Shown here one piece after another: positions 7,572 through 63,032 of a stretch of DNA of 64,000 bases. The notes beneath the pieces were generated by a model, which was given only the letters and a program-made list of their open reading frames with translations, did no database searches and was not told the DNA's origin. The stretch comes from Eledone cirrhosa (Eukaryota). Each line of letters starts with the position of its first letter. Position 1 is the first letter of the stretch. Position numbers and translations under genes: made by a program. Location of the stretch: the NCBI GenBank assembly GCA_964016885.1, contig OZ024756.1, positions 13,454,001 to 13,518,000 on the forward strand, written 5' to 3'.

Positions 7572-8626
7572 TTATTTTGCAGCTAAAAAATCAATGTGGG
7601 TTTCTCGACTTGTGTGACTCGTATGATCATAACCAACAACTTTAATTTCTGTTCCTCCGAAGATCACTTCCAGATCAACGGAACGGTTTTTGTCGCCGGT
7701 TAAATCCGGCATTCCGACAACAAGACAACCACATTTTTCTACATTCTCTTCGTCAACATATTTTACATTGCGCTTTGTTGACTTGAAAAACTCAAACATT
7801 ATTCCCTTTTGGTTAGTGATAATAGGCGTGTAGGTTTCTCGCCATACTTCATTAGCACCTATCACCTTACCGGCTTTGGCCCATATCTGGAAGATATTCT
7901 TGCACAGAACCAAATCCTCGGAAACGACTTTCAAATCTTCCCGGTGATAACCCTCCTCGAATGGAAGGTAAGAGCCGACTCCATATGTAAACCGACAAAT
8001 TCTTTTACAGATTGTGCTCGGATCGTGACCGAAGGCCACAGCACCACGCACAACAGCTAGACTCGCTTCTTCTGGAATGAGTACCGTAAGGCGATCTCCG
8101 AACCGTTCTTTCACAGAACGTTGCAGCCGAACGGATTCAGCAAAACCGCCCACCATAAAAATATACTTGGTATCTTTCATTTTGGCTGAAGCCAGTAACC
8201 AATATACGTGGTCATTGATTTGTTGAAGTGCATCAGAAAAGAGTGAGCTTACTTTATCAGGAGACAACACCAGCTTACCACCAGAGAACTTCACTTCATT
8301 ATTACATTCACTAGCGTATGATTTTATCACTTCTTGAACACTCTTTCCATCGAATTTAAAGTTGCAAAAGTTATAGGGCAGCGACACCCGAATGCTTTCA
8401 CCCTCACCTCTCTTTTTTACCTCAAAGTCTTGTAGTAGTTCCACATAATCCTTGGGATGATTACTTTGGAAATCGTTCATAAAGGCCTCACCAAAAATCT
8501 GAACCATCAAGTTGAGAAATTGCCTGTCAATAACAGTTCCTCCCCAAGCCCCACCTGTGGCATGGAATAGTTCTCGAATACGTCCATCTCGTCGTACTTT
8601 GTGAGCAACCACATCGATTGTACCAC
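7572..8626 (-). CDS. HSPA12: HSPA12-like terminal coding exon 4
   Basis: Acceptor tttcAG|GT completes DAGGGTID; contains GGAWGGTVID, MVGGFAES, LIPEEASLAVVRGAV and FGGTEIKV; stop at 7572. Spliced CDS 804+222+175+1055 = 2256 bp = 751 aa plus stop. Confidence 0.95.
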
Positions 8627-8723
8627 CTGAAATGATAATAATAATCATAATATAATAAAGTAAGGAGTGCGGGACTGTGTCCTGAATATATTTTTTTTAT
8701 CCCGTTTGTAAAATAAGTTGGAT

Positions 8724-9118
8724 TACTTTGAATAAATAATTGTTTCTACTTTAGGCACAAGGCCAGCAATTACCCAGTGTATTACTGGTACTTTGAATAA
8801 ATAATTGTTTCTACTTTAGGCACAAGGCCAGCAATTACCCAGTGTATTACTGGTACTTTGAATAAATAATTGTTTCTACTTTAGGCACAAGGCCAGCAAT
8901 TACACAGTGAATTACTGGTACTTTGAATAAATAATTGTTTCTACTTTAGGCACAAGGCCAGCAATTACCCAGTGTATTACTGGTACTTTGAATAAATAAT
9001 TGTTTCTACTTTTGGCACAAGGCCAGCAATTACCCAGTGCATTACTGGTACTTTGAATAAATAATTGTTTCTACTTTTGGCACAAGGCCAGCAATTACCC
9101 AGTGCATTACTGGTACTT
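8724..9118. repeat. 65-bp tandem repeat x6 derived from the SINE 3' end
   Basis: AATAAATAATTGTTTCTAC recurs at 8731, 8796, 8861, 8926, 8991 and 9056. Confidence 0.9.
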
Positions 9119-9241
9119 TATTTTATCGACCCCGTAAGGATGAAAGGCAAAGTCAACCTCGGCGGGATTTGAACTCAGATCGTAAAGGGACGTAACTATG
9201 CTGGAAAGCATGGCGTCCGACCCTCTACCGATACTGCCAAA
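9056..9241 (-). mobile_element. tRNA-derived SINE copy in HSPA12 intron 3
   Basis: Reverse complement of the 11793 family. Confidence 0.8.
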
Positions 9242-22300: not shown

Positions 22301-22770
22301 AATATGATAATAAGGGCGCTGCGGAGTTGCAAATGGGTTACATATGAAAAAAGTTTGTCCTTCATCAGTGATCTTCCAACTATCATAGGCATTTCATCGC
22401 TTTAAAGACCATATACCTCCGGTTGGTGCGAGCAACGGCTAAATAAAGTCGTTGGGACACGTAAATAAAGGGGACGCGAGGGTAAACAAACAAAATGGTG
22501 AAGCAACAGAAAGTGAGGAAGAAGGAGACAAGTCCCAGATTTCTATGAATTTAAGTTCGGTGAAATCGTGAACGAGAGAATAAAGACCATCAAACCTGGT
22601 TGAAATGTGAGCAAGGAAGGGATTTCGCACAGAGAGAGAGAGAGAGTCGACAGTGTCGGACGGGGAAGGGGGTTGATCAGTTTGAAAAGGTGTCTTTTGA
22701 GCCACACAGAAACACATACACAGACCCATACATGCTTATACACTCATATATAGGTAAACACACACATACA

Positions 22771-25700
22771 ACACTACACTGTACCACCACTACATACCAT
22801 TATATAACACTACACTACACTGTACTACCACTACATACCGTTATATAACACTACACTATACCACCACTACATACCATTATATAACACTATACTGTATCAC
22901 CACTACATACCATTATATAACACTACACTGTACCACCACTACATACCATTATATAACACTACACTACACTGTTCTACCACTACATACCGTTATATAACAC
23001 TACACTATACCACCACTACATACCATTATATAACACTACACTGTATCACCACTACATACCATTATATAACACTACACTGTACCACCACTACATACCATTA
23101 TATGACACTACACTACACTGTACTACCACTACATACCATTATATAACACTACACTGTACCACCACTACATACCATTATATAACACTATACTACACTGTAC
23201 TACCACTACATACCGTTATATAACACTACACTATACCACCACTACATACCATTATATAACACTACACTGTATCACCACTACATACCATTATATAACACTA
23301 TACTGTACGACCACTACATACCATTATATGACACTACACTACACTGTACCACCACTACATACCATTATATAACACTATACTACACTGTACTACCACTACA
23401 TACCGTTATATAACACTACACTGTATCACCACTACATACCATTATATGACACTACACTACACTGTACTACCACTACATACCATTATATAACACTACACTG
23501 TACCACCACTACATACCATTATATGACACTACACTACACTGTACCACCACTACATACCATTATATAACACTATACTGTACCACCACTACATACCATTATA
23601 TAATACTACACTGTACCACCACTACACACCATTATATAACACTATACTGTACCACCACTACATACCATTATATAACACTATACTGTACGACCACTACATA
23701 CCATTATATGACACTACACTACACTGTACCACCACTACATACCATTATATAACACTACACTGTACCATCACTACATACCATTATATAACACTACACTGTA
23801 CCACCACTACATACCATTATATAACACTACACTGTACCCTCACTACATACCATTATATGACACTACACTACACTGTACCACCACTACATACCATTATATG
23901 ACACTACACTACACTGTACCACCACTACATACCATTATATAACACTACACTATACCATCACTACATACGATTATATAACACTACACTGTACCACCACTAC
24001 ATACCATTATATAACACTACACTGTACCAACACTACATACCATTATATAACACTACACTGTACCACCACTACATACCATTATATAACACTACACTGTACC
24101 ACCACTACATACCATTATATAACACTACACTATACCATCACTACATACCATTATATAACACTACACTGTACCACCACTACATACCATTATATAACACTAC
24201 ACTGTACCACCACTACATACCATTATATGACACTACACTACACTGTACCACCACTACATACCATTATATAACACTACACTGTACCACCACTACATACCAT
24301 TATATAACACTACACTGTACCACCACTACATACCATTATATAATACTACACTGTACCACCACTACATACCATTATATGACACTACACTACACTGTACCAC
24401 CACTACATACCATTATATAATACTACACTGTACCACCACTACATACCATTATATAGCACTACACTGTACCACCACTACATACCATTATATAACACTACAC
24501 TATACCAGCACTACATACCATTATATAATACTACACTGTACCACCACTACATACCATTATATGACACTACACTGTACCACCACTACATACAATTATATAA
24601 CACTACACTGTACCACCACTACATACCATTATATAACACTACACTGTACCACCACTACATACCATTATATAACACTACACTGTACCACCACTACATACCA
24701 TTATATAACACTTTACTACACTGTACCACCACTACATACCATTATATAACACTACACTGTACCACCACTACATACCATTATATGACACTACACTACACTG
24801 TACCACCAGTACATACCATTATATGACACTACACTGTACCACCACTACATACCATTATATAACACTACACTGTACCACCACTACATACCATTATATAATA
24901 CTACACTGTATCACCACTACATACCATTATATGACACTACACTACACTGTACTACCACTACATACCATTATATAACACTACACTGTACCACCACTACATA
25001 CCATTATATAACACTACACTGTACCACCACTACATACCATTATATAACACTAGACTGTCCCACCACTACATACCATTATACGACACTACACTACACTGTA
25101 CCACCACTACATACCATTATATGACACTACACTGTACCACCAGTACATACCATTATATAATACTACACTGTACCACCACTACATACCATTATATAATACT
25201 ACACTGTACCACCACTACATACCATTATATGACACTACAGTACACTGTACCACCAGTACATACCATTATATAATACTACACTGTACCACCACTACATACC
25301 ATTATATGACACTACACTACACTGTACCACCAGTACATACCATTACATAACACTACACTACACTGTACCAACACTACATACCATTATATAATACTACACT
25401 GTACCACCACTACATACCATTATATGATACTACACTGTACCACCACTACATACCATTATATGATACTACACTGTACCACCACTACATACCATTATATGAT
25501 ACTACACTACACTGTACCACCACTACATACCATTATATGACACTACACTACACTACACTGTACCACCACTACATACCATTATATAACACTACACTACACT
25601 GTACCACCACTACATACCATTATATGACACTACACTACACTGTACCACCACTACATACCATTATGACACTACACTACACTACACTACACTGTACCACCAC

Positions 25701-28700
25701 TACATACCATTATATAACACTACACTGTACCATCACTACATACCATTATATAACACTACACTGTACCACCACTACATACCATTATATAACACTACACTGT
25801 ACCCTCACTACATACCATTATATGACACTACACTACACTGTACCACCACTACATACCATTATATGACACTACACTACACTGTACCACCACTACATACCAT
25901 TATATAACACTACACTATACCATCACTACATACCATTATATAACACTACACTGTACCACCACTACATACCATTATATAACACTACACTGTACCACCACTA
26001 CATACCATTATATAACACTACACTGTACCATCACTACATACCATTATATGACACTACACTACACTGTACCACCACTACATACCATTATATAATACTACAC
26101 TGTACCACCACTACATACCATTATATAACACTACACTGTACCACCACTACATACCATTATATAACACTACACTGTACCATCACTACATACCATTATATGA
26201 CACTACACTACACTGTACCACCACTACATACCGTTATATGACACTACACTACACTGTACCACCACTACATACCATTATATAACACTACACTATACCATCA
26301 CTACATACCATTATATAACACTACACTGTACCACCACTACATACCATTATATAACACTACACTGTACCACCACTACATACCATTATATAACACTACACTG
26401 TACCACCACTACATACCATTATATAACACTACACTGTACCACCACTACATACCATTATATAACACTACACTATACCATCACTACATACCATTATATAACA
26501 CTACACTGTACCACCACTACATACCATTATATAACACTACACTGTACCACCACTACATACCATTATATGACACTACACTACACTGTACCACCACTACATA
26601 CCATTATATAACACTACACTGTACCACCACTACATACCATTATATAACACTACACTGTACCACCACTACATACCATTATATAATACTACACTGTACCACC
26701 ACTACATACCATTATATGACACTACACTACACTGTACCACCACTACATACCATTATATAATACTACACTGTACCACCACTACATACCATTATATAACACT
26801 ACACTGTACCACCACTACATACCATTATATAACACTACACTATACCATCACTACATACCATTATATAATACTACACTGTACCACCACTACATACCATTAT
26901 ATGACACTACACTGTACCACCACTACATACAATTATATAACACTACACTGTACCACCACTACATACCATTATATAACACTACACTGTACCACCACTACAT
27001 ACCATTATATAACACTACACTGTACCACCACTACATACCATTATATAACACTTTACTACACTGTACCACCACTACATACCATTATATAACACTACACTGT
27101 ACCACCACTACATACCATTATATGACACTACACTACACTGTACCACCAGTACATACCATTATATGACACTACACTGTACCACCACTACATACCATTATAT
27201 AACACTACACTGTACCACCACTACATACCATTATATAATACTACACTGTATCACCACTACATACCATTATATGACACTACACTACACTGTACTACCACTA
27301 CATACCATTATATAACACTACACTGTACCACCACTACATACCATTATATAACACTACACTGTACCACCACTACATACCATTATATAACACTAGACTGTCC
27401 CACCACTACATACCATTATACGACACTACACTACACTGTACCACCACTACATACCATTATATGACACTACACTGTACCACCAGTACATACCATTATATAA
27501 TACTACACTGTACCACCACTACATACCATTATATAATACTACACTGTACCACCACTACATACCATTATATGACACTACAGTACACTGTACCACCAGTACA
27601 TACCATTATATAATACTACACTGTACCACCACTACATACCATTATATGACACTACACTACACTGTACCACCAGTACATACCATTATATAACACTACACTA
27701 CACTGTACCAACACTACATACCATTATATAATACTACACTGTACCACCACTACATACCATTATATGATACTACACTGTACCACCACTACATACCATTATA
27801 TGATACTACACTGTACCACCACTACATACCATTATATGATACTACACTACACTGTACCACCACTACATACCATTATATGACACTACACTACACTACACTG
27901 TACCACCACTACATACCATTATATAACACTACACTACACTGTACCACCACTACATACCATTATATGACACTACACTACACTGTACCACCACTACATACCA
28001 TTATGACACTACACTACACTACACTACACTGTACCACCACTACATACCATTATATAACACTACACTGTACCATCACTACATACCATTATATAACACTACA
28101 CTGTACCACCACTACATACCATTATATAACACTACACTGTACCCTCACTACATACCATTATATGACACTACACTACACTGTACCACCACTACATACCATT
28201 ATATGACACTACACTACACTGTACCACCACTACATACCATTATATAACACTACACTATACCATCACTACATACCATTATATAACACTACACTGTACCACC
28301 ACTACATACCATTATATAACACTACACTGTACCACCACTACATACCATTATATAACACTACACTGTACCATCACTACATACCATTATATGACACTACACT
28401 ACACTGTACCACCACTACATACCATTATATAATACTACACTGTACCACCACTACATACCATTATATAACACTACACTGTACCACCACTACATACCATTAT
28501 ATAACACTACACTGTACCATCACTACATACCATTATATGACACTACACTACACTGTACCACCACTACATACCGTTATATGACACTACACTACACTGTACC
28601 ACCACTACATACCATTATATAACACTACACTATACCATCACTACATACCATTATATAACACTACACTGTACCACCACTACATACCATTATATAACACTAC

Positions 28701-30600
28701 ACTGTACCACCACTACATACCATTATATAACACTACACTGTACCACCACTACATACCATTATATAACACTACACTGTACCACCACTACATACCATTATAT
28801 AACACTACACTATACCATCACTACATACCATTATATAACACTACACTGTACCACCACTACATACCATTATATAACACTACACTGTACCACCACTACATAC
28901 CATTATATGACACTACACTACACTGTACCACCACTACATACCATTATATAACACTACACTGTACCACCACTACATACCATTATATAACACTACACTGTAC
29001 CACCACTACATACCATTATATAATACTACACTGTACCACCACTACATACCATTATATAACACTACACTGTACCACCACTACATACCATTATATAACACTA
29101 CACTATACCATCACTACATACCATTATATAATACTACACTGTACCACCACTACATACCATTATATGACACTACACTGTACCACCACTACATACAATTATA
29201 TAACACTACACTGTACCACCACTACATACCATTATATAACACTACACTGTACCACCACTACATACCATTATATAACACTACACTGTACCACCACTACATA
29301 CCATTATATAACACTTTACTACACTGTACCACCACTACATACCATTATATAACACTACACTGTACCACCACTACATACCATTATATGACACTACACTACA
29401 TCACCAGTACATACCATTATATGACACTACACTGTACCACCACTACATACCATTATATAACACTACACTGTACCACCACTACATACCATTATATAATACT
29501 ACACTGTATCACCACTACATACCATTATATGACACTACACTACACTGTACTACCACTACATACCATTATATAACACTACACTGTACCACCACTACATACC
29601 ATTATATAACACTACACTGTACCACCACTACATACCATTATATAACACTAGACTGTCCCACCACTACATACCATTATACGACACTACACTACACTGTACC
29701 ACCACTACATACCATTATATGACACTACACTGTACCACCAGTACATACCATTATATAATACTACACTGTACCACCACTACATACCATTATATAATACTAC
29801 ACTGTACCACCACTACATACCATTATATGACACTACAGTACACTGTACCACCAGTACATACCATTATATAATACTACACTGTACCACCACTACATACCAT
29901 TATATGACACTACACTACACTGTACCACCAGTACATACCATTATATAACACTACACTACACTGTACCAACACTACATACCATTATATAATACTACACTGT
30001 ACCACCACTACATACCATTATATGATACTACACTGTACCACCACCACATACCATTATATGATACTACACTGTACCACCACTACATACCATTATATGATAC
30101 TACACTACACTGTACCACCACTACATACCATTATATGACACTACACTACACTACACTGTACCACCACTACATACCATTATATAACACTACACTACACTGT
30201 ACCACCACTACATACCATTATATGACACTACACTACACTGTACCACCACTACATACCATTATGACACTACACTACACTACACTGTACCACCACTACATAC
30301 CATTATATGACACTACACTACACTACACTGTACCACCACTACATACCATTATATAACACTACACTACACTGTACCACCACTACATACCATTATATAGTAC
30401 TACACTGTACCACCACTACATACCATTATATGATACTACACTACACTGTACCACCACTACATACCATTATATGACACTACACTACACTGTACCACCACTA
30501 CATACCATTATATGATACTACACTACACTGTACCACCACTACATACCATTATATGACACTACACTACACTACACTGTACCACCACTACATACACCACTAC
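22771..30600. repeat. 36/41-bp satellite (ACACTACACTGTACCACCACTACATACCATTATATA)n with higher-order structure
   Basis: About 7.8 kb array; identical variant blocks recur 2340 bp apart. Confidence 0.95.
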
Positions 30601-38135: not shown

Positions 38136-39110
38136 GGGTCTTTGGAACGGGTATGTCTTGCTAATAAGTGTTTTTACGGAGGTACCAGGTACCAGGTACC
38201 TCCGTAAAAACACTTATTAGCAAGACATACCCGTTCCAAAGACCCTCATGTATAGATAAGAAATGTATAACCTGTAAAATAAGCCCCCATATTAACTGTA
38301 AAACTAGAAATGTAGTGTATAGCATAAGATGTACTGAAGGACAATGTAGAAACAAAAATATAGTGTACATAGGTGAGACAGCTCGTAGTGTAGGGGAACG
38401 GATAAATGAACACTGGGGAGACCTTCAAGATAATAAAGAATCATCTGTACTCTACCAACATGCTAAGATAGAACACAGGGGTAAATTAGAGAACATAGAA
38501 ATAAAAATAGAATCCACACACAGAAAAGATGCAATGTTTAGGCAAATTACAGAGGCAGTAAGCATAAAAGAATTAAAACCAAAATTAAATAGAAAATATG
38601 AGTGGAACAGCAACATCACAACTTACAATTAAGGACAAATGAAAACACACACACACATAGAACAAACAACTTACAATTGAAAACACACACAAAATGAAAA
38701 CACACACAGGACAAAATGAAAACACACACACACATAGAACAAACAACCAACCAACAATAAATAAATAAATAAATAAATAAACAAATAGAAAAATATAAAT
38801 AGAAAAATAGAAAAATGAACACAAACACACACAGACACCCGGATGTGGCGCATGCGCAAACTGAGCACACAACACACACACAGAAACAAAATGGCGTAGG
38901 ATAGAAGAAAGGAAAGGCACAGAAACGAAGAAAGGAATCCGCAGTCACTGAAGAGGTCACAGAGTGTGTGACGAAAGGACTATGACTATATATATAAACA
39001 ACTATCTGGTTGTGGAACCAACCAACCAACCAGAAATTTATAAGTTTGTAGATTTGTAGATTTGTAAATTTATAAATTTATAGATATATAATAAATTGAA
39101 GTGAAAGCAA
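38136..39110 (+). mobile_element. 5'-truncated Penelope-like element: GIY-YIG C-terminus plus 3' pLTR with hammerhead
   Basis: ORF 38168-38632 has C..C...CKTRNVVYSIRC...YIGETARSVGERINEH...E...KPKLN (GIY-YIG). There is an inverted duplication at the 5' junction and an HHR at 38943. Confidence 0.88.
38943..38987 (+). ncRNA. Type I hammerhead ribozyme motif (PLE pLTR)
   Basis: Same as the 12618 copy; lies about 310 bp downstream of the GIY-YIG stop codon. Confidence 0.82.
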
Positions 39111-42174: not shown

Positions 42175-43168
<994 letters not shown>

Positions 43169-43422: not shown

Positions 43423-43457
<35 letters not shown>

Positions 43458-43709
43458 TTTCATTTATTGGCCACAAGGGCCGACATATAGGGGACAACAC
43501 AATAGACAGGGACAGTGGGGGTTTACATAGAGATCGAGTAAGTATAAATAACAAAAAAAACAAAATAACAATAAAAATACAACAATGAAAGTTCCCCAAT
43601 AAGAGGGATCACCACCCAGGGTTGACTCAAGCACCCCACCAGTCCTGAGCCACCCGACGCTCCTAGGGCACCCGGGAAGGGCACCCCTCTCCTTCTCGAA
43701 TTCACCAGC

Positions 43710-46700
43710 CTACAGGCGCATGATCAGAGTAGGCCCACTCACGCGGGCCATTCTCGCCACATTCACCCACCTTTCAGTAAATGTACTGGGGGGCAGCACT
43801 TCTCTCTCCACCCTCACCTTCCTTTCCAAGTGAAACTTGAAGAAGTTGATGAGGGATTGGCCGAAGAGAAAAGTGTCTGTCTTCAGTCCTTTCAACCTGG
43901 TCCACCATGCAACCTCTTTCGCTACTGCCACCAGGCAGAGGAAAATTGCCTGCCCTTCCTGACCAAAAGAAGGCGGCGGGTCAATCTTCACTATGGACTC
44001 GGACGATAGCCGGATCCGTTCTACACGCGACAATAGCTGTTCGACATAACCCCACAAGTCAGCAATGCACGGACACTGGACGAGTGCGTGCAGAACGGTT
44101 TCGTCGCTCTGCGCGCATCTCGGGCAGGTTCGTCTGACAGCACTTCCGTGCCTGTAGAGTTTATCCCGAACCGGCAGCGCCCCCCGGTAGCACTGCCAAG
44201 CGAGGGATTTCTGGAAGTTATCCATCGTCCCCGGCTCGAAAGTCCTCCGGAACATACTGGTCAGTTCTACTTGGTTGACGCCCAGAGCCTCTCCTAGTAC
44301 GTCATCGCACTTGCCCTCCACTAATCCTCTATAGAAATCTTGAGTGGAAGTTCCACTGACCGCATTGCCCACCTTGCAGAGTGCAGTGAGCGCCTGGCAA
44401 CATTCCAGATGCCAGTCGCCCAGTCTCGGTCTCTTCTTGACCCAGGACTGCAGCTCAGTCAAAGAGATGAGCTGCGGAAAGGCCCGTCTAACAAACGGCG
44501 ACCACACCTGTTCACCGTTTAGGCAAAATATCTGGAGATGTCGCAGCCTCAGCGCATGTCTGCGCATCATTAGCCACGGCATGCCCAGCCCTCCACGAAG
44601 AGGGTGCTGGCAGCAGATGGACCGCCTCACCAACGGGACCCGTCCCCTCCACAAAAATTTGAAAAGGAGCCGTTCCAAATTGGCGAGGCGTGGACGGGGG
44701 CAAGGCACGACGGTCAGGCGGTAGTAGATGACGGACGCGATGTACGCGTTCGCCACCTCCGCCCGCCCTTTCAGTGATAGCTTTCTCTCAGCCCATTTCT
44801 GGGTGAGGTTGGCTATCCTGCTCGTCACCTCGTCCCAATTCTTATCCACCTGGAGGTCTGGTCCGAACCAAACCCCGAGCAACTTTACCGGTCCGTCTGT
44901 CCAGCGCCCAACGACGCTGTTGGACGGCATGGACTTGCCTCTCCAGGTGCCGAGCTGCAAGCCCACCGACTTTTCCGGGTTAAGTTTTGCTCCCGTCAAC
45001 CTTTCATATTCCTCCAAATGGGTGCGGATCACCTCGATTTCCGAGGTGTCCGACACCATCACGGTGATGTCGTCCGCATAAGCGGACGCAGCCTTTCTGC
45101 GTCCCGGTTCGAGCGGGATGCCCTGCAACAACTCCAGCTTCCGCAGTAGAGGCTCAAGAGTCAATACGTACAGAAGTGAGGAGAGAGGGCACCCTTGACG
45201 GACCGATCGAGAGATCTGAAACGGTTCCGAGAGGTGGCCATTAACTTTGACCACCGAGCGGATGCCGCTGTACATTGCAGCGATCCAGCTTCTGAAGACG
45301 GGGCCGAAGCCAGCCGCCTCGAGGACAGCCTCCAAGTACCGATGGTCGACCCTATCGAATGCTTTCGATTGATCTAAATTGATCAGAGCCCCACCGAAGC
45401 CAGGTTTGCACCCAACCCTCTCTATGATGTATCGCATGAGGTGGAGGTTGTCGTGTATGGACCTGGTCGGGATTGCGCAAGTTTGCGCCTCCCCAACCAA
45501 ATCCTCGACGACAAGCGCCAACCTTTTCGCTAACACCTTGGCCAAAATCTTAAACTCTGTGTTGAGCAGGGTTATGGGCCTGAAATTATCTAGTGTGTCC
45601 CTCTTGTTCTCGTCTTTCCTTATCAGCGTCACTACGCCACGGCTCACAGAACTGGGAATGCTCCCGTTCTGCTGCCAGTTGCAGTAGAGCGCTTCGAGGA
45701 GATCGGAGAACAAGTCTGGCATATTTACGTAAAGCTCGTAGGGCAGACCATCCAAACCGGGTGACTTGCGACTCGAGCAGCCGACAAGGGCGTCCTGAAT
45801 TTCGGCTGATGTTATCGGCTCTTCGCAGCGCTCAGCGTCGGCCGTCGAGAGGCGTGGCAAGCCGTCGAGGTAGGGACTGAAGTCCGCCGCCGTCTCCGAC
45901 TCACCCATCCTCCCGAACAATCGAGCAAAGTGCTGGCGAAAGGCCTCACACATCCGCTTGGAATCGCTCAGTTCGTGTCCATCTCGATCCGTCAAAGACC
46001 GAATTGTGGTTTTATTTCCACGCTGCGTCTCTGCAAAGCGAGCCCATCGGGCAGCTTTGGTTCCCTCGTTCCTCAGAGCACGCGCCTTAGCTCTGACAAT
46101 GCAACCTTCGTGTTTCGCATTGAAGAAATGGTCTAGTGCCATTCTCGCCGCTAGCACGTCTGTTGCAATGCCACTACAAATAGCCTCGTCTAACTTAGCT
46201 ATCAGCCCCTCCTCCTTTCTATTTTTCTCTATTGCTACTTCTTTGCTAAATCCTATCGAGGTTGCTCTAATCTCTCTTTTGAGTGCCCCCCACCACCTGT
46301 TGTTGACAACCCCCCCTGTCAACTTTTGCTTAACTAAGTTGTTGACCCGGTCCCTGTAAGCTTTACGTGCCGGAAACGACATGTTTAGCTTCCAGTAGCT
46401 AGGTCCTAACCTACGTGTCTTATCTAGGTCGACCATACAGATCACAAGCTTGTGATCTGAATAGGCAACCGTTTTAAAATGTGGACATCCTACACTATTT
46501 CTATCTCTTTTCCTAATGAAAATCCTATCTATGTACGATCTAGATGACCCTATGCGATTGGTCCAGGTCCATACTGGCGCATTAGGGAAATCTAGTCGGT
46601 ACCTGTCAGACAGTTGAAACTGGCTGATCAGGTACTTGAGGCTTTTGCACCCCCCGCTCCTATCAGATACTCCCACACAATCCCAGCGTGCTTCTAAGAT

Positions 46701-47129
46701 GCCATTCCAATCCCCTATTAACAGTAAAGGGCGAGACGTAAGCAGAAAGTTTTCCAGGCGCCTAAAGAAGTCCGGCCGACCGGCCCCAGTAGGGGCGTAG
46801 ACGGCCACCAGTCTAAAGGCACCACCTTCGCTATTGCTCACGTCCAGGACCACCAACTTTCCGTCAGGATCCCGGAAGATTGACCTTACCTCGAGATCCA
46901 GACATTTCCTAAACAGCACAGCCACTCCACCTCCCATTCCCGGCCGACTAACAGATGCAAAGATCTGATAATCGTCGAAAATCGGCGCCAGTGCGCGTGT
47001 GTCGGAAATTCTGGTCTCGCTGATGGCAATTACATCCATTCCTAGTGACCTGAGGTCGTTGAGCAAGTGACCTTGCTTCCAGGGCGACCCCAGGCCACGA
47101 ACATTTAAACTTCCTACTCTTATGGCCAT
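43710..47129 (-). CDS. LINE ORF2: APE endonuclease + reverse transcriptase + C-terminal CCHC
   Basis: 1139 aa intact. EN motifs SLNVRG, ISET, YAP, GDWN, IDRIF, SDH; RT motifs KSPGLDG, FRPITLLN, DQSKAFDRV, RQGCPLS, YADD; C-terminal CPRC...ETVLHALVQC. Confidence 0.96.
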   Translation of the reverse strand: MAIRVGSLNVRGLGSPWKQGHLLNDLRSLGMDVIAISETRISDTRALAPIFDDYQIFASVSRPGMGGGVAVLFRKCLDLEVRSIFRDPDGKLVVLDVSNSEGGAFRLVAVYAPTGAGRPDFFRRLENFLLTSRPLLLIGDWNGILEARWDCVGVSDRSGGCKSLKYLISQFQLSDRYRLDFPNAPVWTWTNRIGSSRSYIDRIFIRKRDRNSVGCPHFKTVAYSDHKLVICMVDLDKTRRLGPSYWKLNMSFPARKAYRDRVNNLVKQKLTGGVVNNRWWGALKREIRATSIGFSKEVAIEKNRKEEGLIAKLDEAICSGIATDVLAARMALDHFFNAKHEGCIVRAKARALRNEGTKAARWARFAETQRGNKTTIRSLTDRDGHELSDSKRMCEAFRQHFARLFGRMGESETAADFSPYLDGLPRLSTADAERCEEPITSAEIQDALVGCSSRKSPGLDGLPYELYVNMPDLFSDLLEALYCNWQQNGSIPSSVSRGVVTLIRKDENKRDTLDNFRPITLLNTEFKILAKVLAKRLALVVEDLVGEAQTCAIPTRSIHDNLHLMRYIIERVGCKPGFGGALINLDQSKAFDRVDHRYLEAVLEAAGFGPVFRSWIAAMYSGIRSVVKVNGHLSEPFQISRSVRQGCPLSSLLYVLTLEPLLRKLELLQGIPLEPGRRKAASAYADDITVMVSDTSEIEVIRTHLEEYERLTGAKLNPEKSVGLQLGTWRGKSMPSNSVVGRWTDGPVKLLGVWFGPDLQVDKNWDEVTSRIANLTQKWAERKLSLKGRAEVANAYIASVIYYRLTVVPCPRPRLANLERLLFKFLWRGRVPLVRRSICCQHPLRGGLGMPWLMMRRHALRLRHLQIFCLNGEQVWSPFVRRAFPQLISLTELQSWVKKRPRLGDWHLECCQALTALCKVGNAVSGTSTQDFYRGLVEGKCDDVLGEALGVNQVELTSMFRRTFEPGTMDNFQKSLAWQCYRGALPVRDKLYRHGSAVRRTCPRCAQSDETVLHALVQCPCIADLWGYVEQLLSRVERIRLSSESIVKIDPPPSFGQEGQAIFLCLVAVAKEVAWWTRLKGLKTDTFLFGQSLINFFKFHLERKVRVEREVLPPSTFTERWVNVARMARVSGPTLIMRL

Positions 47130-47158
47130 GCTGGCAGGATGAATGGGAGAGGAAAGGT

Positions 47159-49069
47159 TTACTTACCTTCCGGGGTCTTGTGAAGGTCGGGTGGTTCGAC
47201 CTCCATGGTTTGTGGGGTTTCTTTTGGGAACCCCTTTAATAGTCTTGACGTGGGTTTTACGTTCGGGGTTCCCACATCCCGAGGAAAGCTCTTTCGAATT
47301 TCTTTGTATGAAGCGAGCGACATTCGCATCAGAAGCAAATTATCTGGTACGCGAAATGTGCTCGCTTCAAATGTTTCCCCGTCTTTTTCGATGTTTGTGC
47401 TTCGTGCTACATGGGCCATCAATTCCTTGTTGGCCCTTCTGGCAAGCACGAAGTTTTTAATGTTTTGTTGCTCGGGTTTTATTTGTTCGTGTGATTGTGG
47501 TGGTGATAGCTTTGTTAGTGTTGTTTCTATTGTGTCTGCGTTTGTTGTGGGTGGGGTGTCTGTAGTTTCTGATGTTTGTGTGTCTATTTGTTCTTGTGTC
47601 TGTTTAGCTTGTTTGCGTTTGGGGGATTTTGGTGGTTGTGTTGGTGATGCTGTGGGGAAAATGTTTGTGTGGGTGGTGTGTGTATTTTTTTTTGTGGGGG
47701 TGTTTGTGCTTTGTGGATTTCTTTTTTTTTTGTGTTTTGTTTTTTGTATTTTGGGGGACTTTGGTTTTCCCTCATCTTCACTGCTGGAGGATGAGGGGTC
47801 TGTGGCTGTGAGCGTGTTTGTGTCTGAGTGAGTGTTTATGTTCTTGTTCGTGTGTGTATTTTGGGGGGGAGGGGGAATGGGAGAGCTTTCCTCGTTTCCC
47901 CCCTGGGTGTGCAATTTTGGTGGTTCCATTGTTGACGGTGTTGCTGGTGGTCCTTGTCCCGGCGTCGCCAGCAGTGGAATCTTTCGACCCCTTGCGCTTT
48001 TCGGCAGTTGAGGGCAGAAGGCTCGCAAGTGTGTCGTTTCCCCACAAAGGAAACAATGCGGCCTTTTGCCCTCAGTCATTATATGCAACACCCTCCCGTT
48101 TTGGAGGCGGATGTGGTCCGGGATTGTTTTTACGTTTTCGGGTCTGATTTGGAGCAGTATCTCCAGATCAACCCCGGACCAGTCGTCCCTGGCAGTTCTC
48201 GTTGCCTCTACCGGGACTGTATCCGTTCCTTCCACGATTACGCAACCCAGGAGCCACCACATATCAAGTCCTGGTGGAATCCTGGGAATGCGCACACGTG
48301 CTATTCGTTTTCCCATGTGGGAGGGGTACATTATGACCTTGCTGGTTTTGCAAGGGGTCATTGAATGCTTCACAGCGAGGGCTTCAGACTTGAACAGCAC
48401 CGAAACGGTGCCGTATTGCCTGCCCCTCTCTATGAAGTCTGTGTCCTCTCTGATGTATTTCAGTGCGGCTTCTATGTCAGCTTGGGCGATTATCGCTGCC
48501 CTCTTTGTCTCTACTGAGATGCATCTGAAATGCACCGTTCTTTTTTCCACTGCCTCAATGGCTTCTGCCGGGACAGTTAAGTTTGCCCAGGTCTGCTCTT
48601 GATTTATGATTTTCCAGGCCTGGGCCAACTTTTCCTCTCTGTTGGTTAGGTCGATGCTGTAGCATGGTCTCCTTTTAGCCGCTGCCACAGCAGCGAAAGT
48701 GTTCTTGTTGGTGTTGTCACTGTTGTTGTTCTTGTTGGTGTTGCTGCTGCTATTGCTGTTGTTGTTCTCCCCTGTGTCGTGGTTACCTTCTGTGCTGTTG
48801 GCCTTGTTGGTGCTGCTGCTGTCGCTACTATTACTCTCTGTGCTGTTCGTTTTGTTGGTGCTCTCGCTATTACCACCTTCTGCGCTGTTCGGCTTGTTGG
48901 TGTTGGTGTTGTCGCTGTTACCACCTTCCGCGCCGCTCGGCCCGTTGGTGCTGGCACTGTCGCTGCTCACATTCGTGCTGGTGGCGCTCCTCGCCTCACC
49001 TCTCCTCTCAACGCTCAAGTCGCCGTTGCACGACAGCAGACCCGCCTCTAGGGGGCGTGGCTCCGCCAT
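47159..49069 (-). CDS. LINE ORF1 protein (gag-like, CCHC zinc knuckle)
   Basis: 636-aa intact ORF with CFLCGETTHLRAFC (CX2CX4HX4C) and N/S-rich and P/K-rich low-complexity ends; lies directly upstream of ORF2. Confidence 0.88.
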   Translation of the reverse strand: MAEPRPLEAGLLSCNGDLSVERRGEARSATSTNVSSDSASTNGPSGAEGGNSDNTNTNKPNSAEGGNSESTNKTNSTESNSSDSSSTNKANSTEGNHDTGENNNSNSSSNTNKNNNSDNTNKNTFAAVAAAKRRPCYSIDLTNREEKLAQAWKIINQEQTWANLTVPAEAIEAVEKRTVHFRCISVETKRAAIIAQADIEAALKYIREDTDFIERGRQYGTVSVLFKSEALAVKHSMTPCKTSKVIMYPSHMGKRIARVRIPRIPPGLDMWWLLGCVIVEGTDTVPVEATRTARDDWSGVDLEILLQIRPENVKTIPDHIRLQNGRVLHIMTEGKRPHCFLCGETTHLRAFCPQLPKSARGRKIPLLATPGQGPPATPSTMEPPKLHTQGGNEESSPIPPPPQNTHTNKNINTHSDTNTLTATDPSSSSSEDEGKPKSPKIQKTKHKKKRNPQSTNTPTKKNTHTTHTNIFPTASPTQPPKSPKRKQAKQTQEQIDTQTSETTDTPPTTNADTIETTLTKLSPPQSHEQIKPEQQNIKNFVLARRANKELMAHVARSTNIEKDGETFEASTFRVPDNLLLMRMSLASYKEIRKSFPRDVGTPNVKPTSRLLKGFPKETPQTMEVEPPDLHKTPEGK

Positions 49070-49278
49070 GTTTTTTTGAGAAAAAAATTATTATTTTTTT
49101 CAAAATAAAGTTCAAATATTTGGGCCAAAAGGCCCAAATATTATGAGTTATTCCTTCACAGGATACAAATTAATGTCTTATAATGCTTCAGCGGTACAAA
49201 AAATAAACAATTCTCTACAATTAATCCTCAAAAATTGCTTACTCACGGAGCTTCAAAAAACGTACATCCACTTTCGTC

Positions 49279-49333
<55 letters not shown>

Positions 49334-49559
49334 GTAATAATAATGGGTTACATTATCGTAAAAGAGGATAGAAAGAAGAGGTATAAAAAGGTGCGATACA
49401 GAATATTACATGCCAAAAGCGGATGCGTAAGTGCTCAATGCTTGGGTTATCAGGGTTAAATATTAGAGAAAGTTAATATTTAGTGTAAAGGACCAGCAGA
49501 GCTGTAAAAGCAAAAGAATGATTGAATGAAAGAGTTGCCAGACGTTAAAACATATCTTT

Positions 49560-51318
49560 ATATAGCTCTTGCACGTGTTTCGCCCAAGGGGGCTCATCGG
49601 AGGCAGATATTAAAAGCAAAGTTTTTAATTACAGACCCTAAGGGGTTAAATAATAACTTTACATCGCCATGCATTGTAATTTTAAATGTTATTGGTATAA
49701 ACACGGTGAAAGGAGTATAGTTTGCTAAGGGAGGTAATTGCCGGTGTCAGTATAACTTATGACCAGAACCAGCTATGGAAAAAAGATTTTTATTTAAAAG
49801 GAATTAACATATGTGGGCTTGGTCAACTCCGTATAAATGATGCCGTGTTTAGGTGTGAATATGATAGACTATTGGTAAAGTCGTTAAACACTGCACACAG
49901 GTATACCTAATGCAAGGGGGCACGTACGGTGCGAATTTGAAGGCCTAGAAAAATAATGTCGATTTGGATCGAACTTGTATGTTCATATGATTAATTATCT
50001 AAGAAGTTATTCGGGTTTAGGCAGCAGGTTCATAAGATTACTTAAACCTGGTCAGGCCAAGAAGAAGAATATAGTAGGGTGGGCTCCATTCGATAGGTGC
50101 TGTACAACTTCCTGGTGGGAAAACAGATGGTGTTATTCCACGTTGTATAAAGGTAAGCCTACCGCAGGCAGGTCAGGCTCGGGTGCGGTGTTGAGAGCCT
50201 CAGGTATTATAGTGGTTATTCAGTTGTTGGGGTTCATCTGTAGAATGATTGTTGTTGTCGGTGGCCGCAATTGATGACTGTTTCGGCCCGACTATTTATG
50301 AGCTCCTGGGGTGCTTACACTATATAATACAGTTCCATTAGGCAGAGCTGGCAGCCTTTTTTGAAATTATAAGGTGTTGCTTTGTTCACAATTTTCCATT
50401 TTGTGGTATAATCAGTTAATTGGGTAATATAATTAGCGAGGGATGTAGAGTATCTAAGTTTCCTATTCCTAAAAGAGTGGTGATGCGGTCGAAATCTAGT
50501 CTTGAACTCCCCTGAAGTAGCTCTTATGTACGACTTAACACTATTAAAACTAGTAACGGTGCATTTACAGATTACGTTTCTAGTTAAGCAGTAGCCTCGG
50601 AGTGGACAGTTGACAGGGTTACGACAATTGCAATGTTTTTTTGTTGTCACCTCTAAGGCGGTGAGGGCTGGTGTTAATCCTATTACTATTATTATCACCA
50701 TCATCTTAGTTGCTATTATTGTGGTCGGCACTATTATTGTTATATTCATGCGAAATAGTGCTATTTCTATTTCTCGTGTTATAGCGTCTTCTACAGCCGT
50801 TGTTATAGTTGCTATGGTTTCTAACCTTGTCGTCGGTCACACTACTGGCACTGTGATTAATTTCTAAGGTGGTGTTATTGTGCATACTACTGTTGACATT
50901 AAGATTCCTGTCCTGGTTACTAATATCGTTACCGTGCCGGGTGACCGAATTGTTAAGGTTGACCGAGTTGGCATGTTCCCTAATGTTCGCATTACAGGCA
51001 ATCTAGTGAGCTTACTGTGGTTGCTTATTGCTATGAGGTCGGCTAAATTAGGTGTAGTGGAATAGGAAATTTTGACGTTATTCTTGTTGAGGATTTTTCG
51101 GTATCTGTGGTTAGGTGGGAAGTTCCTCTGTAAGGCGTCGAAAAAGATTCTGGGTAAATTGGAGGCCACACTCTGAGAGTAGGGAGGATGGAACCATAAG
51201 ATATTACGCCGGCGTTTACGCGTTATTCTGGGGTTATTGCGGATGTTATTGCCGTGGTGGGTATCAAGGCAGTAGGGCTGCTGGCTAATGTGTGCTCTGT
51301 TAGCATTATGCCTATGTG

Positions 51319-51320
<2 letters not shown>
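49560..51320 (-). mobile_element. Degenerate Penelope-like element 3' part (different family)
   Basis: Encodes WFHPPYSQSVASNL...FPPNHRYRKILNKNNVKISYSTTPN and CNCRNPVNCPLRGYCL...SYI..T...FKTRF..H..SF (GIY-YIG region); a degenerate HHR lies downstream at 49565. Confidence 0.8.
49565..49604 (-). ncRNA. Degenerate hammerhead motif
   Basis: CCGAUGA-GCCC ccuu GGGC-GAAA-CACGUG-ca; two core deviations (U4C and U16.1C). Confidence 0.55.
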
Positions 51321-51371
<51 letters not shown>

Positions 51372-57942: not shown

Positions 57943-58961
57943 GAAAAATTTGAACAGGGACAGAACAGAGAGGCAGTACAATAAATGTTTATTAAATTCA
58001 TGCTCAGGAGAGTGTGTGTGTGTGTGTGTGTATATATACGTAACGAAGGAAGAATGGTAAGGAACCAGGTGGACCATAACGCACCAGAGTACTCGATACT
58101 TTGGGTAGTAGAGTGGGTAATAGGAAAAGTGTCAAGACCCCAACGACAGAGCTCAAGCCGTTTCGACGGCTATTTCTGGACTCGTGTTTGAGTCCAGAAA
58201 TAGCCATCGAAACGGCTTGAGCTCTGTCGTTGGGGTCTTGACTATTTTCATATATATATATAGAGAGAGAGAGGGGGAGAGAGAGAGAGAGGCAGTGTGA
58301 GAGAGAATGGAAGGATGGGATAGAATGAGTAAGAACAATGTTATGTAGTGGAAAAAGACATCACATCATCTTAATAACAATCATGAGTTGATTGAAAGTT
58401 GTAAACTCCAGACAGAGGACGAAGAGAATAACACAATACCAGATGAAGCCTCCAGATGAAACATTCACAATATGTTATGGAGAAAGTGGGTAGCTAATAT
58501 TAGGCAAACTATAGATGAAACACTACAGAATGTAATGGAGAAGTGGGGGTAATTAATAGAAGGGAATCTCCAGATGAAACTTTACAAGCTATAATAAAGA
58601 AGGGGGTAGCTAATAGAAGGAACCAACTTGAATGTCTTCAGGTATGGAAGTCTTCAGGCATGGAAGTGAAAGTAGAAGATGTATTAAAAGTTAATGGGAA
58701 AAGAGGAGAATTTAACTGAAAGACAGGAAGGAATGCAGTGGTAATGCTGGAAATAGGGATGATAAATAATGAAAATATAGGACAAAAACCCAGTTAAATG
58801 AAATGGTTCGAAACAGCTCAAAGATAGATCTTAAGTTCAAATTGTAAAAAGGGAAATATAGTGTTTCCATCACAGCAATACTATATTTGAACGTCACATG
58901 AGTGCCAAGACCTTATCTTTAAGTTAGCTTGGAAGATCTAGGTTTATATATATATATATAG

Positions 58962-59033
<72 letters not shown>

Positions 59034-59126
59034 TTCTTTATTAGCCACAGGGGCACAAAAGAAGGGGACAAATACAAAGGGGGAAGTTTACATACAATAA
59101 AAACGTGTAAAATGTTATCACAAATG

Positions 59127-59170
<44 letters not shown>

Positions 59171-59322
59171 TATTTCTTTATTTACCATAAAGGCATAAAA
59201 AGAAGGGACAAATACAAAGGGGAGTTTACATAAAATCGAGTAAAAAGGGTATAAAATGAAAATAATCGAAAACAACCTCAAAAGGGAGGGGACGTGATGG
59301 GGGTTGCACACACCCTATAGAG

Positions 59323-59387
<65 letters not shown>

Positions 59388-59585
59388 TATAGATAGAAAC
59401 ATATGATGATTTCATATGAATAAAACAGTTCTAGCCCTGTAAAAGTCATATATATATGATTTAAAGTCATATATATATGATTTAATATAGAAATGGCGTC
59501 TACAGGACTAGAACTGTTTCGTTCGAAAGAAATTACCATAGCTTTCCTGTAGAAGCCATTTCTATATTAAATTTTGAACCCGGAA

Positions 59586-62030: not shown

Positions 62031-62048
62031 TTACATACACCTACCTAC

Positions 62049-62110
<62 letters not shown>

Positions 62111-62115
62111 CACAC

Positions 62116-62176
<61 letters not shown>

Positions 62177-62200
62177 TATATATATATATATGTTATTTAC

Positions 62201-62667
62201 CTTGTTTGCGTACAGCTTCATTTTAAACCTGTCAAAATAGTAATAATCGCCAACTTCTTCTTCGCTGAGGTCATTATATTTCGATATGGCATCGAAACCA
62301 AATGCTTCGAACTCTCCAGATGGTCGTAAAAGTAGACAGGTGGGGGTTTTGTGCAGCATAAAGCCCTGTGTTTGACCCCAGTTCTTGTTGGTAAAAATAG
62401 CCTCTTTTTCTGAACTTAAGGAGTAAGCATAACCGGAAAATGTGGTACCAAAATCTATGGCCGTTACCAGCGAAAATGTTTCGGCCGGCTCTTCGTCCAC
62501 GTTTAGCTCATCAATCTCAGCACATAGTTCGGAATTCATACCTGTAGAGTTGACCATTATAGCGCCAGATCCGGTACTGTTCACCATACCCGCCGTCGCC
62601 GTCGCCGCTGACTCAGACGCACTCATAACGTCGTTTGCTGCTGTGCAGACGTCGCCCGAAACGTCGC

Positions 62668-62704
<37 letters not shown>

Positions 62705-62853
62705 ATCCGGTATACCGTCACCGTTGAGTGAATAGAGAGTGGAGGTTAATGGCGGCACCTTGTCCAACTCCTCCGAGTCCGTGCGTATGTGCCGTGCCGC
62801 GGGAGTCGGCTTTGCATGTCCTGTGGTGTTGGTAGTAGTGGTGTTGTTGTTGT

Positions 62854-62884
<31 letters not shown>

Positions 62885-63004
62885 GCTGGTGGTGGTTGGA
62901 GAAGACGGCTGGATATTGTTTAGTGGTGGCGGAGGCGTAGGTGGCGGTGGAGGAGCGTACTCGGTGGGTGGAGCGTCGTCAAAGTCTGAAGCGGTGGTCG
63001 ACAT
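62201..63004 (-). CDS. HSPA12: HSPA12-like (heat shock 70 kDa protein 12) coding exon 1
   Basis: ATG at 63004. A low-complexity Pro/Thr/Asp N-terminus is followed by [24 protein letters not shown] and [10 protein letters not shown], motifs typical of HSPA12. The exon ends AAG|GTAAAT (donor at 62200), phase 0, 804 bp. Confidence 0.93.
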
Positions 63005-63032
63005 TGTACTTTCGTTATCGTAAGATATCTAT

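Follow-up and report, generated by a model that had tools for sequence, protein, structure and literature searches.

Related LINE families occupy (GATA)n or (AAT)n microsatellites in the genome of Eledone cirrhosa

Results

Truncated LINE ends in GATA arrays and an intact relative in AAT

Between positions 58962 and 59397 of the window, the 64,000-nucleotide stretch of Eledone cirrhosa DNA analysed here (G000:C17:13454001-13518000, from a genome of 3.0 Gb), two short minus-strand LINE fragments alternate with GATA microsatellites. Fragment A (59031..59128, minus strand) consists of the terminal ~98 bp of the 3' UTR of one family (family A), and fragment B (59171..59315, minus strand) of the terminal 145 bp of the 3' UTR of another (family B); both are 5'-truncated copies. 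On the 3' side of A lies a (GATA)~18 array (58962..59030), which we read as target DNA plus one duplication copy. A (GATA)11 spacer (59127..59170) is both the 5' flank of A and the 3' flank of B, and a (GATA)~16-20 array (59317..59397) forms the 5' junction of B; the two outer arrays were delimited from the sequence and with TRF. The truncation point of A overlaps the GATA repeat by 2 nt. As the middle array is common to both fragments, the flanks of A and B are not separate arrays, and since the arrays in the window are pure, neither a duplication nor the order of the two insertions can be read from them.

LINE C (43456..49278, minus strand), 15 kb away, is a full-length, intact, AAT-targeting element of 5.8 kb with (AAT)10 on its 3' side (43426..43455) and (AAT)~18-22 at its 5' junction (49279..49344; both from the sequence and TRF). 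Its ORF2 (43710..47162, minus strand) encodes an APE endonuclease, a reverse transcriptase and a zf-RVT domain (Pfam PF03372, PF00078 and PF13966), and the endonuclease matches L1-EN structure chains with E values of ~1e-7 to 1e-6. ORF1 (47159..49087, minus strand) contains one CCHC zinc knuckle and gave no match in a Pfam search. Family C has 2,179 candidates genome-wide, and ORF2 is open in 18 further copies, with protein identities of 99.1-99.8%. A splice-donor-like GGT(A/G)AG lies just 5' of the ORF2 start in 4/4 families examined (at ~47160-47170 in the window, and in the parents of A, B and a family, F4, described below).

The window also holds two exon-like minus-strand ORFs (7572-8696 and 62048-63028), which we take to resemble an HSP70-12-type gene at its two ends; should they form a single gene, its introns would contain LINE C and fragments A and B, all in the orientation of that gene. 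Two short ORFs, at 38168-38632 (plus strand) and 50315-51367 (minus strand), are by their appearance presumably GIY-YIG endonuclease or Penelope-type remnants. Near-perfect long inverted repeats occur at 58155-58243 and 42540-42900, and a 7.8-kb satellite (22766-30565) is built of 36-bp units with a higher-order period of 149 bp.

A preliminary description of the window had proposed that A and B are LINE-related 3' ends flanked on both sides by GATA and oriented like LINE C, and TRF together with alignment against shuffled sequence upheld this. Local alignment to the LINE C 3' end at 43456 scored 69 for A and 83 for B, and A against B scored 100; 0/1000 dinucleotide shuffles matched the real scores (shuffle maxima of 61 for A-C, 76 for B-C and 53 for A-B). 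The A-C similarity is short, 42 bp at 79% by blastn, and A and B are 82% identical over 67 bp. All three are co-oriented, the element sense being the minus strand. Each end carries a predicted 4-bp hairpin with a 5-nt loop followed by AATAAA (59037..59059, minus strand, in A; near 59177-59197 in B and near 43463-43485 in C), and the likeness of A and B to C originally noted consists of this predicted hairpin plus AATAAA. Across 27 aligned families 88.9% of cells are paired, and in 2/4 pairs both partners vary (11 cells; 0/500 shuffles), where the inner two pairs were fixed by the sampling motif and the shuffles ignore kinship.

Full-length parents and a wider group of LINEs

Searches with fragment A returned 553 candidates, the best 40 all 100% identical, and with fragment B 1,092, the best 40 at 97-100% identity; exact A-type 3' ends (29-nt core) number 5,752 genome-wide. 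Longer copies of both families extend into ORF2, their parents measure ~5.8 kb, and fragment A is identical over its full length to full-length parents. An intact family B parent (L092) encodes an ORF1 of 607 aa and an ORF2 of 1149 aa, the latter 65.5% identical to the ORF2 of C in an alignment over residues 14-1146; an open ORF2 was absent from all 8 long family A copies fetched. Full-length elements with ORF1 and ORF2 were thus recovered elsewhere for both fragments. Parent DNA identities are 77% (A-B), 74% (A-C) and 71% (B-C), so that, of the suggestion that A and B are two 3' ends of a sister family, the relatedness to C stands and the single family does not.

Judged by their encoded domains, the A, B and C parents class as L1/Tx1-type APE LINEs: ORF2 combines an N-terminal APE endonuclease, a reverse transcriptase and a C-terminal cysteine-rich domain, and the copies show 5' truncation and target-site duplications, as in APE-type non-LTR retrotransposons. 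A C-x2-C-x4-H-x4-C knuckle is present in ORF1 of 7/9 parents examined, those of A, B and C among them, and a CCHC zinc knuckle in ORF1 is a feature of the Tx1 clade. Another feature of that clade, sequence-specific insertion, is apparent in the flank counts of the GATA and AAT families (below); among APE clades, site-specific LINEs are found only in Tx1 and R1, according to the accessible text of PMC6007223. Among the matches listed in two homologue searches and one cluster look-up, no protein bore a Tx1 name. The nearest named relative was an Argonauta hians protein (65% over the reverse transcriptase), followed by turtle and fish proteins (29-39%).

Exact matches to an 18-nt motif from the common 3' end number 31,650 in the genome, versus 2 for a control; since family B does not fit the motif, this is a lower bound. 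The first 100 motif matches listed, together with long A, B and C copies, gave a sample of 246 3' ends in 37 clusters, with 6 unassigned. Instead of the one sister family on GATA first envisaged, there are about ten GATA-associated families (each with at least 2 sampled copies or one full-length copy). Mixed-family stacks are common, in agreement with the proposed serial insertion into one array; one, at C1:15.47-15.50 Mb, holds four full-length copies from three families. Four copies (L049, L002, L017 and L019) are truncated at the A/B truncation points or within a few bases of them, which makes recurrent truncation sites in these families possible, with the proviso that the queries favour such matches.

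Flank type and lineage

The labels GATA, AAT and minisatellite (F4) were assigned to families by their 3' flanks; counts on the 3' side are therefore in part circular, and independent evidence comes from the 5' junction. We placed 191/246 5' junctions; 4 were dropped where the alignment passed through a second element. In the GATA group, (GATA)>=2 was present at 95/137 5' junctions and (AAT)>=3 at 0/137, while the AAT group had AAT at 26/38 and GATA at 0/38, against backgrounds of 0.3-0.4% for GATA and 0.2% for AAT. Copies at least 96% identical to their parent had the repeat at the 5' junction in 69/84 (GATA group) and 23/25 (AAT group) cases, and a position-sampled C1 subset in 30/55 and 6/17, respectively; the A, B and C loci are best matches and hence biased young, and those of C are biased towards full length. 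On the 3' side the repeat was found in 100/137 GATA-group and 35/38 AAT-group copies. Genome-wide, 5,023 of the 5,752 A-type ends (29-nt core) follow TAGATANN and 0 (27-nt core) follow AATAATNN; 0 C-type ends follow TAGATANN, and the AAT-plus-C-type junction has 3,008 matches. Flank type therefore tracks subfamily, as had been predicted, with zero cross-over in 175 resolved copies and in the genome-wide counts.

The repeat is missing at the 5' junction of 42/137 GATA-group and 12/38 AAT-group copies, most of which are older or may have an interrupted repeat. Since at least one clean duplication, at C3:220819992, sits in non-repeat AT-rich DNA, the repeat preference is strong, not absolute. In family F4, present at G000:C1:4.22-4.26 Mb (L156-L159) and elsewhere, 12/12 copies are full-length and have the same ~72-bp minisatellite on both sides, at one fixed position. 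Six F4 copies form a head-to-tail stack, and in 2/12 a TTAA-ended motif lies on the 5' side, at most 900 bp away.

Independent C insertions in some cases have a unique-looking flank beyond the AAT run in common (L065/L071/L088; L074/L077/L078; L079/L087), and many AAT targets therefore belong to other repeats. A SINE-like repeat occurs in the window at 8724-9119 (six 65-bp tandem copies), 11974, 21960, 33328, 33444 and 39758. Its end resembles the LINE 3' end, with an identical CUUGU loop, and AAT adjoins 53/69 SINE-like ends in the DNA fetched, making it a candidate passenger of the AAT-targeting families.

Target-site duplications

Duplications anchored by non-repeat bases were available at only 20/137 GATA-group junctions. 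Of these, 13 end within 2 nt of the element; the other seven comprise three repeats, two 8-bp matches, one 19-bp duplication with a mismatch and one with 7 unexplained nt, the last being a B copy at C2:226909284 in which 7 extra nt of GATA repeat lie beyond an 8-bp duplication. A mismatch-tolerant pass, which fixed the duplication end point by design, gave 11 duplications of 14-21 bp, of which 9 end in GATA and 2 in TATA, with 8 then followed by more GATA. Across anchored cases the length is ~13-21 bp. The AAT group yielded no clean anchored duplication, as all 4 flagged cases were repeats or tandem copies.

Because the duplications end in GATA or TATA and mostly continue into more GATA, the array preceded the insertion, and from their ends we infer a first nick at GATA^GATA in the cDNA-priming strand. 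Neither poly(A) nor an added repeat tail was found in the anchored cases, and poly(A) was absent from the junctions examined. Thus, of the "tail/target specificity" ascribed to these elements, the duplications and the 5' junction repeats bear out a pre-existing target and speak against an added tail. Among the 11 duplications there was no directional signal of RNA-templated correction (mismatches one left, one right and one neither). In 52 young truncated A/B copies, microhomology with the repeat was at least 2 nt in 14 (null 12.5%) and 0-1 nt in 15, and 23 had extra bases.

Phylogeny and the endonuclease loop

Trees were built with at most 2 copies per family (at most 3 in the endonuclease, EN, tree). 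All three trees (reverse transcriptase, RT, 100/99; C-terminus 100/99; EN 95) unite the GATA families and F4 in a single group, within which F4 is nested among GATA families by RT (91/89 and 95/92). In the RT tree the AAT families are paraphyletic (86/99), in the EN tree they form a clade (92), and the C-terminus tree is without resolution here. An AAT-to-GATA direction, suggested by the 86/99 branch of the RT tree, is no more than possible, as the EN tree instead makes AAT a clade. The notion of switched specificity accordingly survives as a difference in repeat between related lineages and not as a direction of change, on which the RT and EN trees disagree.

A loop of L1-EN probes the minor groove (accessible text of PMC1950540). 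The corresponding hairpin loop, mapped via L1-EN, reads WTNRIGSSRS in families C and F10, and S replaces I in 14/14 GATA rows. The loop of F4 (WTNRSGTSRS) is close to that of family A (WSNRSGTSRS) despite the minisatellite target; the hairpin loop as sole target determinant was therefore ruled out, F4 and A nearly sharing the loop and differing in target. The comparison of endonuclease loops between ATT- and TATC-associated families that had been proposed thus yields an I/S difference, with F4 as the case in which the loop alone does not sort targets. Forty-nine EN columns separate the groups, all on one split, and given this and the F4 loop no single residue can be picked.

Effect on GATA microsatellites

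Overlapping counts (262,150 - 209,071) gave 53,079 perfect (GATA)>=4 runs, of which 7,722 (14.5%) run straight into NNTTTCTTT, the element 3' end, versus 36 for the control. In a sample of 26 arrays (the first 26 on C1, from one small region), 19-20 have a copy no more than 120 bp away, one case being doubtful. Seeding of new microsatellites, which the preliminary description had entertained, was not seen, the anchored duplications showing the array to be there first. Its suggestion of expansion holds only to the extent that an insertion duplicates ~13-21 bp and turns one array into two. The association of arrays and elements is explained by targeting; splitting and duplication add arrays and lengthen them slightly.

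Discussion

We consider it very probable that A and B are truncated copies of two related LINE families in (GATA)n, likely inserted via an endonuclease nick at GATA^GATA, and that LINE C represents a sister branch in (AAT)n. A nick of the GATA strand at this site would leave a 3'-OH ending in ...AGATA, which could prime reverse transcription at the hairpin-AAUAAA end of the RNA. A second nick 13-21 bp away would yield the duplication, and early termination, often at short microhomology, would produce fragments such as A and B. Each insertion would split its array into two and copy 3-5 units, and both new arrays would remain targets, hence the mixed-family stacks. Because AATAAA is only ~6-10 nt from the element end, the RNA would carry at its end a few units of the flanking repeat, through which it could pair with the nicked target, leaving no trace within the duplication; such read-through and pairing are plausible.

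This pairing could instead be the main basis of site choice, a loosely AT-specific endonuclease being directed by pairing of the nicked strand with the read-through repeat, so that a family keeps the repeat of its source. We regard this as unlikely. It fits the absence of poly(A) in the copies examined, the position of AATAAA and the switch of target by F4 with a nearly unchanged hairpin loop, and RNA-target pairing is cited for the I factor, R1Bm and R2Ol in the available portion of PMC6007223; however, stray copies should then found lineages on other repeats, and 0/137 GATA-group copies lie by AAT, with none in the reverse direction. Moreover, the GATA state is constant across families 75-82% identical in DNA, and the duplications are without trace of RNA-templated correction.

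Far less probable is random insertion followed by a self-made (TATC)n or (ATT)n tail, as in RTE and CR1/L2 elements, by which the LINEs would seed microsatellites. Repeats at the 5' junctions of truncated copies are unreachable for a tail, even though the 3' repeat is slightly commoner than the 5' one (100 vs 95 of 137; 35 vs 26 of 38), and the anchored 3' flank is often 1-2 units, with the long array past the second duplication copy. Tails of this kind are described for RTE (accessible text of PMC6007223), and the 7 extra nt at C2:226909284 would suit one, but the second apparent tail case is the 19-bp duplication with one mismatch, and mismatches are without GATA bias. Passive accumulation by random insertion and better survival in microsatellite-rich DNA is scarcely credible even in a genome this rich in microsatellites, given that the junctions are strand- and phase-fixed, family-specific and strongest in the youngest copies, and that copies are not as a rule flanked by the far commoner (AT)n, (AC)n and (AG)n arrays.

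A tentative and less likely extension would make the LINEs the main engine of (GATA)n, element and microsatellite co-amplifying, with read-through repeat units in the RNA aiding site choice, so that one lineage could move among AAT, GATA and the minisatellite by small endonuclease changes. A large share of GATA repeats, a common marker class, is tied to retrotransposon junctions. How APE-type LINEs target microsatellites was described in 2013 as not well understood (accessible text of PMC3812793), and intact young elements whose ORF2s are 65-71% identical to one another's reference, with three targets, form a natural set for target determinants.

RTE LINEs bear microsatellite-like 3' tails (available portion of PMC6007223). 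As in those elements, the 3' end here adjoins a short repeat, possibly pairing with the target; unlike them, the Eledone elements have the repeat also at 5' junctions and within duplications, so that it is not the 3'-confined tail of the RTE type, and a CCHC knuckle is encoded in their separate ORF1. Dong, an R4-type element, shares its repeat unit with family C. Dong on (TAA)n, Waldo on (ACAY)n and Mino on (AC)n target microsatellites, as given in the accessible text of PMC3812793, Waldo and Mino belonging, by a title cited there, to the R1 clade, another clade than the Eledone elements, in which ORF2 combines an APE endonuclease at the N-terminus with zf-RVT.

An Octopus vulgaris annotation reports 13 recently active L1-Tx1 families, the word 'target' being absent from its accessible text (PMC13282606), and Tx1 is not mentioned in the available portion of PMC9115989. 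Our literature search met no Tx1 family on GATA or AAT, though Repbase or Kojima and Fujiwara 2004 may list such families; (GATA)n and (AAT)n targets are apparently unreported for this LINE group, microsatellite targeting itself being already known. Tx1 elements occupy (TC)n (Kibi) and (TTC)n (Koshi) in teleosts and (TTCC)n/(TTTC)n in crocodilians (accessible texts of PMC4494074 and PMC3812793). Like these, the Eledone elements are APE-type LINEs in microsatellites, with related families on different units; unlike Kibi and Koshi, compared here by description only, they target (GATA)n, (AAT)n and a minisatellite, with more than 31,000 3' ends. Tx1L of Xenopus sits in Tx1D, and crocodilian Tx1-Mar in Mariner-N4 (accessible text of PMC4494074). 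F4 resembles both in occupying one position of another repeat, in 12/12 copies and on both sides, and differs from them in that it apparently derives from microsatellite-targeting relatives.
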